Shown here: in pieces, positions 36,457 to 53,932 of the stretch
Layout of the letters: each line of letters begins with the position of its first letter
Numbering within the stretch: the first letter of the stretch is position 1
IMG/VR virus record: IMGVR_UViG_3300021979_000003
Span: 1 to 64,000 of that record
Reading direction: 5' to 3' (one strand)
Source: a virus
Lineage: Duplodnaviria > Caudoviricetes
Length of the DNA stretch: 64,000 nt
Program-made: the position numbers and the translations under genes
Notes under the pieces: generated by a model
Database searches by the model: none
Told to the model about the DNA's origin: nothing
The model's input: the letters and a program-made list of their open reading frames with translations, nothing else

Positions 36457-36867
36457 TTACTGATAAATTTCAAACGTTTTCTGATTACCGTTTGCAAAAT
36501 GAATAATTGATTTAACATTATCTGCTAATGCATGATCAGGTGCCATTACAATTTCTTCTTTAGAATAAACAGTAATCTTTTCATCTTCCATTGTAACGGC
36601 TTCATAGATATTGTCAACTACTGTTTTAAATACAAATACAGTGTAGTCTTCACCAAAAATATAACCAAATAACGTTGGCTCGATATCAAGATTGCATTCT
36701 TCTTTAGCTTCGCGGATCATTGCGGCGACAATGGTTTCATCTTGCTCAACTTTTCCACCCACGAAGGTAGTTTTACCTTTTAAAAACTCAGGGCGATTTT
36801 TACTAATCATCACGTATTCTTCATGTGTGGGATCAGTAATAACACTCATTACATAGCTTATAGACAT
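36457..36867 (-). CDS. Nudix hydrolase
   Basis: Intact Nudix box GGKVEQDETIVAAMIREAKEECNL. Confidence 0.92.
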   Translation of the reverse strand: MSISYVMSVITDPTHEEYVMISKNRPEFLKGKTTFVGGKVEQDETIVAAMIREAKEECNLDIEPTLFGYIFGEDYTVFVFKTVVDNIYEAVTMEDEKITVYSKEEIVMAPDHALADNVKSIIHFANGNQKTFEIYQ

Positions 36868-43819: not shown

Positions 43820-44260
43820 CTAGTCCAACATATCAAAACGTAATTGTTCGAGTATATCTATAACCCATTGTCCACCAGCTTCTTTTACTTCTCCATTGTA
43901 CACATAGTAGTGCTTTAATGGAAGCGTTAAGTCAGTCCACAATGAATTTTCTTTAAGCCAATCAGAATTATCATTTATCTTTTGCTGTAAAGCTTTTTTA
44001 AACTTATTCTTATTGACTGTTTGGTTTGCTACTGGAAGCTTTCTACCATATTCTTTTGCTTTGTATCCATGTAGATCACGCAGCATATCATCATAGGTTT
44101 TAAGCCAATACCAGTATCCCTCTAATGACTCAAAATGACCATCAGGAGTATTCACTGGTGTATGGGCAAAGTTTGAAAGAAACCTACCCAGAGAGGTCTT
44201 ACCACGTGAGTAAGCGTTAATATGTGTTATGCCATCTTCTTCTGGATCAATATCTAACAT
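43820..44260 (-). CDS. NADAR-like protein (T4 gp30.3-related)
   Basis: HINAYS...FLSNFAHTP...FESLEGYWYWLK resembles gp30.3 LSNFA...LEGF; likely start 44260. Confidence 0.6.
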   Translation of the reverse strand: MLDIDPEEDGITHINAYSRGKTSLGRFLSNFAHTPVNTPDGHFESLEGYWYWLKTYDDMLRDLHGYKAKEYGRKLPVANQTVNKNKFKKALQQKINDNSDWLKENSLWTDLTLPLKHYYVYNGEVKEAGGQWVIDILEQLRFDMLD

Positions 44261-48020: not shown

Positions 48021-48533
48021 TCACCAGAGTTCAAATATATCGTGAATTTTATCCATGTGTTTCTCATTATACAGATTGTACACAGGAATATCAAACAAAC
48101 TCGCTAACTTAATAGCCGTTGCTGTACCACCTGTGTTTCTTGTACAACTATCAATATCATATGCACCATCAGGAGTCCAGCATATTACCATATCTGATTT
48201 TTCATTTGGGTCTAAGTTCTTACCAAATATCTGAAATACATTTCTGGCATGAAGCTTCTTAGAGCCTTGTGACAAATTATTGTATGCTGGATGAATAATA
48301 CTTATCATTTCATCAGCCAAATCTAAAAGGCGAGAATCTTTTATAACAATTCCATTATTACTAAACCCGCTCCATGGAATGAATATCTCTAAATTATTAG
48401 TGGTTTGTTCAAATGCGGTGTCACATCCTTTTGCTCCCCCACTTCTAACAATGTGATTTTGAAGTGGGAGGCGGGTTATGAAATCATACATTTCTTCTGG
48501 TACTTTTCTACTACCGATACCAGTCACTATCAT
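48021..48533 (-). CDS. SLOG-superfamily (DprA/YspA-like) protein
   Basis: TGIGSR, RSGGAKGCD, ARN, GGTATA motifs. Confidence 0.8.
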   Translation of the reverse strand: MIVTGIGSRKVPEEMYDFITRLPLQNHIVRSGGAKGCDTAFEQTTNNLEIFIPWSGFSNNGIVIKDSRLLDLADEMISIIHPAYNNLSQGSKKLHARNVFQIFGKNLDPNEKSDMVICWTPDGAYDIDSCTRNTGGTATAIKLASLFDIPVYNLYNEKHMDKIHDIFELW

Positions 48534-48859: not shown

Positions 48860-49704
48860 AGTGTTGATCTTATATCGACCAACTTTTTGAGCATCTTGTT
48901 ATCTTCTTCATAGAAGTCTTGCTCTGAATCGTGCTTACTATTTATTTTATTTGAATACTCTCTGTATACATCTGGGTGATCTTTCTTAAACCTATCACTC
49001 AAGATGAAACACACACCGTATTCTTTTTCGTATTCTTCACGATCTTTAATCGACATAAACGCTTCAACTGAAATGTATTTTCGGTTGGGACGTAAATCGA
49101 CATACCAAACATAAAGCTCAAGTATTTCCTTGTACTTTTCTATCTGTCTGATTATGGAATTCTGCTCTGAAATACTGGATGCATCATATGGGTTCATGTC
49201 AATGTTTTTAGTTATATGCATGACACCAAGTTCTGGTGACCGGAACTTAGAACTTTGAATTCCAAGGAAATCAAAATGTTTCGAAATAATACGTTGCTTT
49301 TTATATGAGTCGTACAGTGGATGTGATTCATCCATGCAAATAAATTCCATCCATGCCAGTTCGCCTTCTACGAACTCTTTGAGAAGATTAAACATACCGT
49401 GAAACATACGGTCATCGACTTCATTGTAACCAACGCCCAGACCCGTATCAATCATGTGTGTTCTTTCAGTGATACGATGTGCAATTACATTACGTAAGTT
49501 GGGAATACGATCACTGATAAGGAATCGGTATGCACTATCAATCTTATCTGGAACTGTTTCTAAAAGAAAGTATCGAATCGGTGTATCTTCACGATATTTC
49601 TTGTAGAAATCGTTCCAACCATCATGAGAGAGTGCAAAGGGTTTCTCTGCACCGTACTTGTCTCTCAATTTTTCTACTACTTTACTCGAAATACTTCTAA
49701 TCAC
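48850..49704 (-). CDS. hypothetical protein
   Basis: 284-aa ORF ending in L..L..IR..LWT. Confidence 0.8.
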   Translation of the reverse strand: MIRSISSKVVEKLRDKYGAEKPFALSHDGWNDFYKKYREDTPIRYFLLETVPDKIDSAYRFLISDRIPNLRNVIAHRITERTHMIDTGLGVGYNEVDDRMFHGMFNLLKEFVEGELAWMEFICMDESHPLYDSYKKQRIISKHFDFLGIQSSKFRSPELGVMHITKNIDMNPYDASSISEQNSIIRQIEKYKEILELYVWYVDLRPNRKYISVEAFMSIKDREEYEKEYGVCFILSDRFKKDHPDVYREYSNKINSKHDSEQDFYEEDNKMLKKLVDIRSTLWT

Positions 49705-50477
49705 ACATCAACCCCTAGTGATATATTTTTAATATGTTCGAATGATGGGTTATCAAACGAATCCACAATGGTTACATTTCGTTGTGCTTCGCGAGATTCC
49801 GGTTTATTTTTATCGGGTATCTTGTCCCACACTTCATCTTCAATAGGCATTGTAACCTGTTTACGGTAGATGTAAACCCCATAACGAAACTCGTTAGGAT
49901 AGTCATACCAATTAACATCTTTACGAAGACCCAACATGCTAATGACTTCAGTAGTCTTCTTCTTATGCATGTCACTACGACTTAGGTAATAATGACCAAC
50001 CATAGACACTGAGTTTCGCACACAGTCAACTTGCCTCCAATAAATGGAATTAACCGCTTCATTGTAGTCTGGAACGTTGAATGCACGAGCATCAAAGTGT
50101 GGAGTGGTTTCAGACACATGCTCAGGCCATTTCTTCATCGCTTCAATGACGAATTTAGATGTTGCCATAGCAGCCAGAACACTAACCACTTTTTGTTTCT
50201 TAGCATTGAAGAAAACATCTTTGCGATCAATAAGAATAGAAATCTCATCGCTTTGAGTATAGGCCAAGCAACCGCCACACTTTTCCATGACGTGCTTAGC
50301 CGTTGCAACCATCACTTCCCGAAAGTCTTCATCATACGGACGCTTGAACGGTTTGGTAAATTTACTGAAACCACGTCCGTCTAGACGTACAACGATAGGA
50401 AGGTTTGGATTAAGCTTTTCACGAGTTTCTTTTTTCTCGTACATTTTCATTCTATGTGCAAAATCAGTACTATCCAT
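49701..50477 (-). CDS. thg1: tRNA(His) guanylyltransferase (Thg1-like) 3'-5' polymerase
   Basis: RMKMYE, VVRLDGRGFSKFT, YTQSDEIS, FDARAF, WRQVDCVRNS. Confidence 0.93.
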   Translation of the reverse strand: MDSTDFAHRMKMYEKKETREKLNPNLPIVVRLDGRGFSKFTKPFKRPYDEDFREVMVATAKHVMEKCGGCLAYTQSDEISILIDRKDVFFNAKKQKVVSVLAAMATSKFVIEAMKKWPEHVSETTPHFDARAFNVPDYNEAVNSIYWRQVDCVRNSVSMVGHYYLSRSDMHKKKTTEVISMLGLRKDVNWYDYPNEFRYGVYIYRKQVTMPIEDEVWDKIPDKNKPESREAQRNVTIVDSFDNPSFEHIKNISLGVDV

Positions 50478-50495
50478 AACAATTATCCTTACAAA

Positions 50496-50717
50496 TTAAA
50501 TGGTTACAAAAGACGCAGTAGACAAGAAATAGTCAAATACTGGCTCTGATACAAAGATCAGTGCGCGTTCACCATGGACGGTTTTACATACATAGTGTTC
50601 ATCTTCAAGAACATGTACAACATTTTCAGAAAATTCAATCTCAATGGTTTGACCGTGGAGACTTCCACCTGCTACACGAACTTCATCATTAGACACAACA
50701 ACACTCATATCAGTCAT
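50496..50717 (-). CDS. small hypothetical protein
   Basis: AAGGGG RBS; GGSLHG motif. Confidence 0.65.
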   Translation of the reverse strand: MTDMSVVVSNDEVRVAGGSLHGQTIEIEFSENVVHVLEDEHYVCKTVHGERALIFVSEPVFDYFLSTASFVTI

Positions 50718-50760: not shown

Positions 50761-51825
50761 TTACTCAGAAAGCAAATCTTTAATGATATAATAGTGATCT
50801 TCAAAAAACATATCTCGCATGTTTTCGATTTCAAACAAAGAGAACCATCCTGCATGTTCTTTCTGGCTTTTTGTTTTACGCACCTTGGGGAATCCCTTAA
50901 GGCTTGTAACATTGTCCAGTTCTACCAGACCTGCATTAGTAATAATGCGTCCGCGTAGTGAACGGATAGGATCATCATATGTCTTAACTTTGCGTACATT
51001 AGAACTAAGAATGTTTTCATGTACTTGAATGTTGGTGTCTTTTTTCAAATTTTTAACAACACCTTCCTCAATAGTATCACCTTGAGAAAGAAAGCCTCCC
51101 GGCAAACAATAAAGGTCTTTACCAACAGCACCTTTGCGCTTTACGACCAAGACATAGCCTTTGTAATAAACCACTGCATCTGTAGTTACAAAGGTAGGAG
51201 GAAATGGTGCTGCTTCCCACTGTGACTTTTGAAATTTAACTGCCTCATATTCTTCCTTGAGGTCTTCAAAGTCATAACCCTTGCGAAAAGTATCATACCA
51301 CTCACCCTTCCTGAACTTATCATAAAGATTGGTCATGTTGGGAGCAATGTGTAATGAGATATCTTCCATACCATAGAAGTCTTCATAAAGTTCCTGACTG
51401 ATGCCCATATCAACTTTATTCACATTGAAGATTGGCTCAGGGAAAATGTTTTCATATCGGTGATTTGATTCACTCGATACATACACATTTAGTTCTAGAT
51501 TTTTTCGATCTACATACAAAGCATTAAGACGCTCATTCAATTTCGAATGAACATCTGTGATCCACTGACGCTTATTAACGGGGTTGTCTTTGACAAGGCA
51601 GATAGAAAAGTCTTCCTTTTCCAACCCATCATTGACTTCGAAGGTTTTTAGAATGTTGTCTGCACGATCATGCTTGTTGAAAGGCATTGTGTAATCTTTA
51701 GAACGATCAGCAGAACAAACAAAGATCAACACATGATCATTCTCATCTGATGCTTTTCTAAGAACATGGAAAATTTCTCGGGTTACAAACGAGAACTTAC
51801 CGACTACTACTCCAATCTTTGCCAT
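50761..51825 (-). CDS. NadM-Nudix homologue with both catalytic motifs degenerate
   Basis: APFPPTFVTTDAVV, LPGGF, RSLRGRIIT, FEDH retained; GRFQPFHxGH is GKFSFVTREI; RELxEE is KNLKKD. Confidence 0.85.
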   Translation of the reverse strand: MAKIGVVVGKFSFVTREIFHVLRKASDENDHVLIFVCSADRSKDYTMPFNKHDRADNILKTFEVNDGLEKEDFSICLVKDNPVNKRQWITDVHSKLNERLNALYVDRKNLELNVYVSSESNHRYENIFPEPIFNVNKVDMGISQELYEDFYGMEDISLHIAPNMTNLYDKFRKGEWYDTFRKGYDFEDLKEEYEAVKFQKSQWEAAPFPPTFVTTDAVVYYKGYVLVVKRKGAVGKDLYCLPGGFLSQGDTIEEGVVKNLKKDTNIQVHENILSSNVRKVKTYDDPIRSLRGRIITNAGLVELDNVTSLKGFPKVRKTKSQKEHAGWFSLFEIENMRDMFFEDHYYIIKDLLSE

Positions 51826-52039
51826 AGCGAGAACCCCTTAATTCGATACGCTTTTCTTTATGATAAAGATATGATACCACAGCTACATAGAAAATAGCAA
51901 CTATTTTATTAATGTATGGGATAGATGATAGTATAACAGAAAACAGTGCCTTCGAAATTATAAAGGCACCGCTATAGAATGCTATAATGTAAAAAGCTCC
52001 AAAAAAGGAGCAAATTATTAAAAGTCTCAGTCTTTCCAT
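51797..52039 (-). CDS. membrane protein
   Basis: Hydrophobic segments. Confidence 0.65.
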   Translation of the reverse strand: MERLRLLIICSFFGAFYIIAFYSGAFIISKALFSVILSSIPYINKIVAIFYVAVVSYLYHKEKRIELRGSRYGKDWSSSR

Positions 52040-53572: not shown

Positions 53573-53932
53573 TCAGTTTAATATATCGGAGTTTATGATA
53601 TTAATTTCGATATTATACTTACTTCGCATAACTGCTCTCGCACCCATGATGTGGCGCACGGCAGCGACATTTGAAGAATGAACATAGATTCTTTTAAGCT
53701 TAGAAAGCTCGATATCTTTCCAATAAAGACGTTCTTCAATCCATTTGAAAATATCTTTCCCTTCAATCTCTTCGCCTAAATCATTGTCCAAGCTGACAAC
53801 TTCAAACGTGTTTGTTTGAAGAGCTTTAAAAGCATCGGCAGAATTCTTAACCCATACCCATTCCCCTTTAACGAACTCTTCTGGGTTTCGTAAATCATCG
53901 ACCCATAACATATTTGACATAACAACCTCCAA
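53573..53932 (-). CDS. cyclic-phosphate-processing receiver-domain protein
   Basis: LWVDDLR, SLDNDLG, IYVHSSN. Confidence 0.85.
   Translation of the reverse strand: MEVVMSNMLWVDDLRNPEEFVKGEWVWVKNSADAFKALQTNTFEVVSLDNDLGEEIEGKDIFKWIEERLYWKDIELSKLKRIYVHSSNVAAVRHIMGARAVMRSKYNIEINIINSDILN

Follow-up and report, generated by a model that had tools for sequence, protein, structure and literature searches.

Bifunctional NadM-Nudix proteins join a HIGH-type nucleotidyltransferase domain, the nicotinamide mononucleotide (NMN) adenylyltransferase or NMNAT, to a Nudix domain of the ADP-ribose pyrophosphatase type. They are represented by Synechocystis slr0787 (structure 2qjo), Francisella tularensis NadM (2qjt) and NatV of Vibrio phage KVP40, the NMNAT of the NAD+ reconstitution pathway NARP2. 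In Nudix enzymes, the glutamates of the REUxEE signature hold the catalytic metals. At present, the NAD+ enzymes of phages are taken to mark pathways, with NadM standing for NARP2. Here, we describe a gene for a 354-amino-acid (aa) NadM-Nudix homologue that lacks the signature motifs of both activities. It lies in a stretch of 64,000 nucleotides (hereafter the window) at positions 1 to 64,000 of IMG/VR virus record IMGVR_UViG_3300021979_000003 (Caudoviricetes). We propose, with a probability of roughly 0.5, that its product is an exapted, non-catalytic binder of an ADP-ribose-type ligand.

Two further lines of earlier work frame this proposal. The Nudix domains closest to that of NadM belong to NrtR, in which catalysis was lost when the signature was perturbed while the response to ADP-ribose was kept (PMC2330246). 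In Slr1690/NrtR, kcat with the perturbed signature is about 1e-4 per second, and the protein becomes 600-fold faster once the canonical signature is put back (PMC2330246). Among phages, NadV was reported in every NadM-containing phage, with no mention of an inactive NadM form (Iyer et al. 2022), and a two-gene pathway made up of NadR and PnuC, NARP3, was published in 2026 for phages of Enterobacteriaceae (PMC13464706).

A NadM-Nudix homologue that has lost its catalytic motifs

The preliminary description of this locus had claimed full-length homology to NadM-Nudix enzymes and an intact open reading frame (ORF), and both claims hold at exactly the coordinates given in Table 1. An AAGGGG ribosome-binding site lies 7 nt ahead of the ATG. 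The NCBIfam PRK05379 models match residues 6-352 (E 2.8e-53), although the best score, 181 bits, does not reach the equivalog cut-off of 397. PHROG 395 is matched at E 5e-30, and the structure 2qjt aligns with residues 3-354 (E 2e-29) and 2qjo with the Nudix half. An AlphaFold2 model based on 60 homologues (predicted local distance difference test score, pLDDT, 92.2; predicted template modelling score, pTM, 0.89) has the two-domain architecture and resembles 2qjo and 2qjt with template modelling (TM) scores of 0.85-0.91. After NadM-Nudix, the next-best structural matches include the ADP-ribose-bound NrtR Nudix domain (3gz8) and archaeal NMNATs. Searches of PDB and viral folds returned matches of NadM, Nudix and NMNAT type only. 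The protein clearly descends from phage NadM-Nudix genes.

Column-by-column comparison with 87 canonical homologues places the changes at the catalytic positions. The two histidines of HxGH, H15 and H18, show 100% conservation among the canonical sequences and are T and I here, leaving TREI. The arginine of SxTxxR, R147, is equally conserved among the 87 sequences and is Y here, and G116, N47 and W131 of the same domain are also altered. The archaeal equivalents H19 and R136 were chosen for site-directed mutant structures, according to PDB titles (1m8k, H19A; 1m8j, R136A). In the Nudix domain, REUxEE has become K258-N259-L260-K261-K262-D263 (bases 51037-51054), and the canonical box GX5EX7REUXEEXGU is broken by E250D, R258K, E259N, E262K and E263D. 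The losses of HxGH, SSTxIR and RELxEE had been pointed out previously, and all three are borne out. Loss of the acidic G-x-D-D-A loop is an additional change, absent from the preliminary description. The motif losses are far beyond chance.

Nearly all remaining conserved Nudix-domain residues are kept, including PTFVTTDAV, LPGGF, DxPxRSxRGR, W327 and FEDH, in agreement with the earlier claim that the substrate-pocket motifs PTFVTTDAV, RSLRGR and FEDH are retained. Residues kept in the N-terminal domain are A25, S38, P48, R54, D80, W88, F128 and P129. An Asp/Trp pair in KVP40 NatV has been described as its NAD+-recognition residues (PMC13464706), and D80 and W88 are probably the equivalent pair, putatively recognising the NMN moiety.

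With none of the ATP-site signatures left, the window protein is very unlikely to catalyse NMN adenylyl transfer. Loss of the Nudix signature, together with the Slr1690/NrtR precedent, makes canonical hydrolysis very unlikely as well, and we infer that both activities have been lost. A conserved NadM-type pocket in which acids have been exchanged for invariant or recurrent lysines suggests metal-free binding of a diphosphate-containing, possibly extra-phosphorylated, ligand of the ADP-ribose type.

Selection and evolutionary series

The gene shows no sign of decay. Relatives at 99, 83, 82, 78, 65 and 42-45% identity are all from marine metagenomes and all intact. Between the window gene and its closest relative, the proportion of nonsynonymous differences (pN) is 0.043 and that of synonymous differences (pS) 0.69, with both domains constrained. 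Within the subclade pN is 0.04-0.13, and pS is about 0.7, near saturation, in every comparison. The pN/pS ratio is no higher than that of neighbouring genes, Thg1-like enzyme included. The N-terminal domain diverges faster than the Nudix domain by a factor of 1.75-1.94 (about 1.9) in the dead clades, compared with 1.5-2.2 in catalytically intact relatives. These data support the view, already put forward in the preliminary description, of a pseudoenzyme that has been kept. The protein is doubly motif-dead and under purifying selection, and not decaying.

The degenerate Nudix motif is itself conserved, which answers a question raised in the preliminary description. Fifteen aligned sequences, with 32-84% identity to the window protein, all have N259, L260, K261, K262, D263 and T264. 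When 1.84 billion representatives clustered at 50% identity were searched exhaustively with a profile, the clan carrying this NLKKD motif amounted to only four clusters (478-523 bits; next match 369). None of the 143 other representatives whose motifs were checked has N-L-K-K-D. Sporadic Nudix changes of other kinds occur in a few of these that have canonical NMNAT motifs. In five, the first HxGH position is T and all else is intact. The family tree has long stem branches and short crown branches, as would be expected had a change of function been followed by a return of constraint.

Among proteins of cultured phages, gp103 of Salicola phage SCTP-2 (ASV44118.1; 36% identity) is the closest. 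Its GRFQP, HNSH and SATxxR motifs are intact and its Nudix box reads TNLKKD. The gene directly downstream, gp104 (MF360958.1 97847-99217; L002:9099-10469), encodes NadV/Nampt (PF04095, 178 bits). The motifs of gp103 predict a functional NMNAT coupled to a dead Nudix domain, and hence an evolutionary intermediate. The gp104 product is annotated 'hypothetical protein', so SCTP-2 carries an unannotated NARP2 pair with a motif-dead Nudix. The canonical state is represented by the relative L015, in which NadV lies directly downstream, and by 80 IMG/VR NadM-Nudix loci, of which nearly all have canonical motifs and a NadV no more than a few kb away.

In the tree, SCTP-2, clade B and clade A, to which the window belongs, lie on the same side of a branch with 99/95 support, which is compatible with a single origin of NLKKD. 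The NMNAT motifs have gone at least twice in the family: within the NLKKD clan and, as an independent event, in lineage C. Should the weakly supported grouping of SCTP-2 with clade B be real, they were also lost separately in clades A and B. In a separate phage lineage, L016 (5948-10282), the NadM-Nudix gene adjoins NadV and a NadR-type enzyme and has lost HxGH but kept RELKEE, a mirror-image half-dead state.

The window gene is 91% identical to its counterpart in L006 (IMGVR_UViG_3300009194_000006), whereas the eleven flanking genes compared are only 37-73% identical, in conserved order. Relative to L003 and L008, the pattern of identity between gene and flanks is reversed. The L006 pattern suggests either an old allele exchange limited to this gene or exceptional constraint.

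NAD+ synthesis genes and gene neighbourhood

The record is a 239-kb IMG/VR contig with a CheckV completeness estimate of 54%. The preliminary description had asked whether NadV and a second, active copy of the enzyme lie elsewhere in the genome. Searches of the 239-kb record by hidden Markov model (HMM) and tblastn found no NadV. No second NadM was found in the record either, but it does encode an intact NadR-type NMNAT/ribosylnicotinamide kinase. This enzyme of 347 aa lacks a helix-turn-helix (HTH) domain, carries TTGH, ISATxxR and Walker A motifs, and reaches 279 bits against PRK08099 (cut-off 201). The next gene encodes a PnuC transporter, and its start overlaps the NadR stop codon. No NadR was found in SCTP-2, which keeps both its NadM NMNAT motifs and NadV. 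The simplest reading of these gene contents is that NARP2 was replaced by NARP3, which would have freed the NadM-Nudix protein from its enzymatic role.

The NadR-PnuC pair corresponds exactly to NARP3, which occurs here in a marine SCTP-2-like jumbo phage. Two other small Nudix proteins are encoded at window 36457-36867 (minus strand) and record 172701-173156 (plus strand). The REAKEE box of the former is canonical throughout, so catalytic-looking Nudix enzymes are not missing from this phage.

Table 1. Features of the NadM-Nudix homologue and its surroundings (window coordinates unless stated otherwise).
Feature	Residues	Position	Strand	Remarks
NadM-Nudix homologue, doubly motif-dead (gene)	1-354	50761..51825	minus	intact ORF, 354 aa
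N-terminal NMNAT-like domain (HIGH nucleotidyltransferase fold)	1-175	51301..51825	minus	catalytic and ATP-site residues gone
C-terminal Nudix-fold domain, NadM ADP-ribose pyrophosphatase type	206-354	50764..51210	minus	family and structure matches
GKFSFVTREI, replacing GRFQPxHxGH	9-18	51772..51801	minus	R10K, Q12S, P13F, H15T, H18I
ISQELY, replacing IS(A/S)TxxR	142-147	51385..51402	minus	T144Q, R147Y
PTFVTTDAV, NadM-type Nudix pocket strand, kept	210-218	51172..51198	minus	conservation
Degenerate Nudix box	244-266	51028..51096	minus	Gx5E glutamate is D250
RSLRGR, kept	288-293	50947..50964	minus	conservation
Lysine-rich loop	313-324	50854..50889	minus	spans position of canonical acidic G-x-D-D-A loop (317-322)
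FEDH, kept	341-344	50794..50805	minus	conservation
p73, 73-aa orphan, directly downstream		50496..50717	minus	predicted small beta-barrel and C-terminal helix, pLDDT 80
Thg1-like 3'-5' nucleotidyltransferase, conserved neighbour		49701..50477	minus	
SLOG/DprA-like protein, 170 aa, conserved neighbour		48021..48533	minus	phrog_768 'DprA-like', E 2e-46
cREC (cyclic-phosphate processing receiver) domain protein, conserved neighbour		53573..53932	minus	
HAD/PNK-phosphatase-like protein, 154 aa		52557..53021	minus	N-terminal DxDxT-like FDNTL motif; weak PHROG polynucleotide kinase match, E 1.7e-4
NadR-PnuC pair (outside the window)		record 236544-238291 (L099:6545-8292)		intact two-gene module

Neighbours of the dead gene recur in all clade A and B loci examined, down to 35% identity, as far as the contigs reach. 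The fullest order is cREC, DUF3307, HAD/PNK-phosphatase-like, p177, the dead NadM-Nudix gene, p73, Thg1-like, p284, p109, SLOG/DprA-like, rhomboid, HD hydrolase and a 737-aa protein, with single members absent from some contigs. Downstream of the dead gene, each of the clade A and B loci examined has a homologue of p73, in the position that NadV holds in SCTP-2. Searches with p73 gave no family match, no significant match by fold and no homologue in SCTP-2. In that phage, gp103 lies outside such a cluster and Thg1 is 240 kb away.

Both cREC and SLOG domains have been predicted to process or sense ADP-ribose derivatives, and Nudix-cREC linkages occur in phage RNA-repair neighbourhoods (Iyer et al. 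2022). The cREC, SLOG, Thg1 and HAD neighbours are of the kind tied to the processing of ADP-ribose derivatives and to RNA repair, and as such fit a ligand of the ADP-ribose type. The HAD/PNK-phosphatase-like protein may be a HAD-type RNA 3'-phosphatase in this repair cluster. The SLOG/DprA-like protein found no match in Pfam or NCBIfam. ArfA, an Acb1-type 2H phosphoesterase and Pth2 are encoded near the cluster. Pfam and PHROGs searches with ten further cluster genes returned only PTH2 and families of unknown function. The ten include the ORF at 43823-44260, which had been read as NADAR-like.

A proposed link to ADP-ribosylated targets of an ART cargo finds no footing, as neither ART (PF03496) nor Macro (PF01661) nor Tpt1/KptA (PF01885) was found in the 239-kb record. 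Without Tpt1/KptA in the record, a KptA-based source of ADPR>p (ADPR, ADP-ribose) is likewise unsupported. Upstream, an 80-aa hydrophobic ORF with no family match (51797-52039, minus strand) overlaps the start of the dead gene by 29 nt, and an 80-aa gene is called at the equivalent place in three contigs carrying P0005 (L008-L010). A promoter scan gave counts no different from chance.

A putative ligand binder and its relation to known systems

We propose that the window protein arose in steps from a phage NAD+ reconstitution enzyme, a NadM-Nudix of the NatV type. In SCTP-2-like marine jumbo phages, the metal-binding acids of the Nudix domain would first have given way to the invariant N-L-K-K-D, with NMNAT activity and an adjacent NadV still in place, and SCTP-2 may be today's example of this Nudix-dead stage. 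Later, in lineages including that of the window, the nucleotidyltransferase motifs would have been lost and NadV would have gone from the adjoining position, with NAD+ synthesis presumably taken over by the NadR-PnuC pair. Both domains of the fold have been kept complete, as have D80, W88 and those residues of the ADP-ribose site that take no part in catalysis. The protein most likely no longer acts as a catalyst and instead binds ADP-ribose or a more anionic derivative, whose diphosphate would be contacted by lysines in place of Mg2+ ions. Its role would then be that of a ligand-holding module, whether sequestering or sensing, in a conserved cluster of counter-defence and RNA-repair genes. 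Signal sequestering, metabolite sensing or the presentation of a substrate to neighbouring enzymes may each be its role.

Several observations weigh against a binder of this kind. Residues D263, E342, D343 and H344 remain and could support altered chemistry. Known phage sponges are small and oligomeric, unlike this protein of 354 aa and two domains. Retention of the pocket is read from family conservation only, and a gene neighbourhood alone is no proof of functional linkage. Further, the 46% of the genome not in the record could include NadV, which in L013, a deeper member of clade A with the motif TNSH, lies 9.6 kb from the gene.

One competing explanation, which we consider unlikely, is a role as scaffold or protein-binding subunit without nucleotide binding, the fold being kept for dimerisation or for a partner such as p73 or the Thg1-like enzyme. 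The constant presence of p73 after the gene in clades A and B, and its absence from SCTP-2, would fit such a partnership. So would an N-terminal domain that has no ATP-site residues and is yet constrained as in active enzymes, and an allele that is exchanged or conserved as a unit. A scaffold leaves unexplained, however, why the residues of the ADP-ribose pocket (PTFVTTDAV, DxPxRSxRGR and FEDH) should be invariant, and why NLKKD should be fixed in the former active site.

Equally unlikely, in our estimation, is a neo-enzyme, in which K261/K262, D263 and E342-D343-H344 would support a novel reaction, perhaps with a single metal or none, whose substrate would be an ADP-ribose derivative or a NAD-capped or ADP-ribosylated RNA end. 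To our knowledge, no Nudix enzyme works with an N-L-K-K-D box, and here four box positions (E250, R258, E259 and E262) and the acidic GDDA loop are all without their canonical residues. Perturbed signatures in the nearest family, moreover, cut kcat to the value given above for Slr1690 (PMC2330246). In favour of new chemistry, the replacing residues are invariant, compared with random degradation in NrtR (PMC2330246), and acid and histidine residues remain. The neighbouring genes process RNA ends and ADP-ribose derivatives, and the Nudix clan has evolved non-hydrolase chemistries elsewhere (PMC5389931).

That the protein still works as an NMNAT, an ADP-ribose pyrophosphatase or both, as an ordinary component of NARP2, is highly improbable. 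T at the first HxGH position does occur in otherwise canonical homologues and in the phage's own NadR (TTGH), but the window protein has also lost the second histidine, G116 and the arginines of GRFQP and SxTxxR, the profile score falls far below the equivalog cut-offs and no NadV was found in the 239-kb record. With all signatures lost, we reject this explanation. Decay into a functionless remnant, to which missing catalytic motifs and a missing pathway partner might point, has a negligible probability and is effectively refuted by strong purifying selection, with ORFs intact in all relatives, pN far below a saturated pS and conservation across lineages down to 32% identity.

A bolder form of the binder proposal is also conceivable, although we think it less likely than either the scaffold or the neo-enzyme. 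Dead NadM-Nudix proteins of the NLKKD type would then be a new family of phage counter-defence proteins, exapted from NAD salvage after the switch from NARP2 to NARP3. They would act as metal-free, lysine-lined traps that sequester immune signals or toxic derivatives of ADP-ribose, such as gcADPR, His-ADPR, ADPR-1''-phosphate or ADPR>p. If the window protein does bind ADP-ribose-derived signals, it would be an anti-defence binder of a new type, as well as a ready affinity reagent for the ADPR family.

The locus has consequences for annotation. Neither NMN adenylyltransferase nor ADP-ribose pyrophosphatase would be a proper annotation for the window protein. Its clade shows that a NadM-Nudix match can be a non-enzyme, so annotation pipelines and censuses of NARP pathways will miscount. 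It also offers a natural three-step series from bifunctional enzyme to pseudoenzyme, running from fully active through Nudix-dead (SCTP-2) to doubly dead (window). The series is unusual in that the metal-binding acids have been swapped for an invariant lysine-containing motif and not randomly degraded. Literature searches found no description of an inactive or doubly dead NadM form, and no near-identical DNA was found in the phage collection. It seems that no doubly dead NadM-Nudix under strong selection, with its replacement motif invariant, has been described before.

Set beside the bifunctional NadM-Nudix enzymes, the window protein shares their full-length architecture, fold and family-specific non-catalytic residues. 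It differs in lacking GRFQPxHxGH, SxTxxR, REUxEE and the GDDA loop, in scoring below the NCBIfam equivalog cut-offs, and in standing in a cluster of RNA-repair and ADP-ribose-derivative-processing genes, without an adjacent NadV, instead of in a nadV operon. SCTP-2 gp103 has the same N-L-K-K-D-T motif and belongs to the same clan, yet it keeps HNSH, GRFQP and SATxxR and is followed directly by NadV.

By analogy, we regard NrtR (e.g., that of Shewanella oneidensis, 3gz5/3gz8) as the best mechanistic precedent. Like the window protein, it has a Nudix domain of the NadM ADP-ribose pyrophosphatase type with a perturbed signature, which in NrtR is non-catalytic and has ADP-ribose as its ligand. However, NrtR has a C-terminal winged-helix DNA-binding domain, whereas the window protein ends with its Nudix domain, and NrtR has no NMNAT-like domain. 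Further, its signature has degraded 'more or less randomly', in contrast to the invariant replacement seen here. The phage sponges Tad1, Tad2 and Acb2, which act on ADPR-derived or cyclic-nucleotide signals, offer a possible functional analogy only, being small and oligomeric and having no kinship in sequence or fold with the window protein. The NUDT9-H domain of TRPM2 and the Nudix-like domain of DBC1 follow the same principle, a dead Nudix fold serving as a binder of ADP-ribose or NAD metabolites, in unrelated proteins and contexts (PMC5389931). By this comparison, the window protein would work most like the dead Nudix sensor domains of NrtR or TRPM2.

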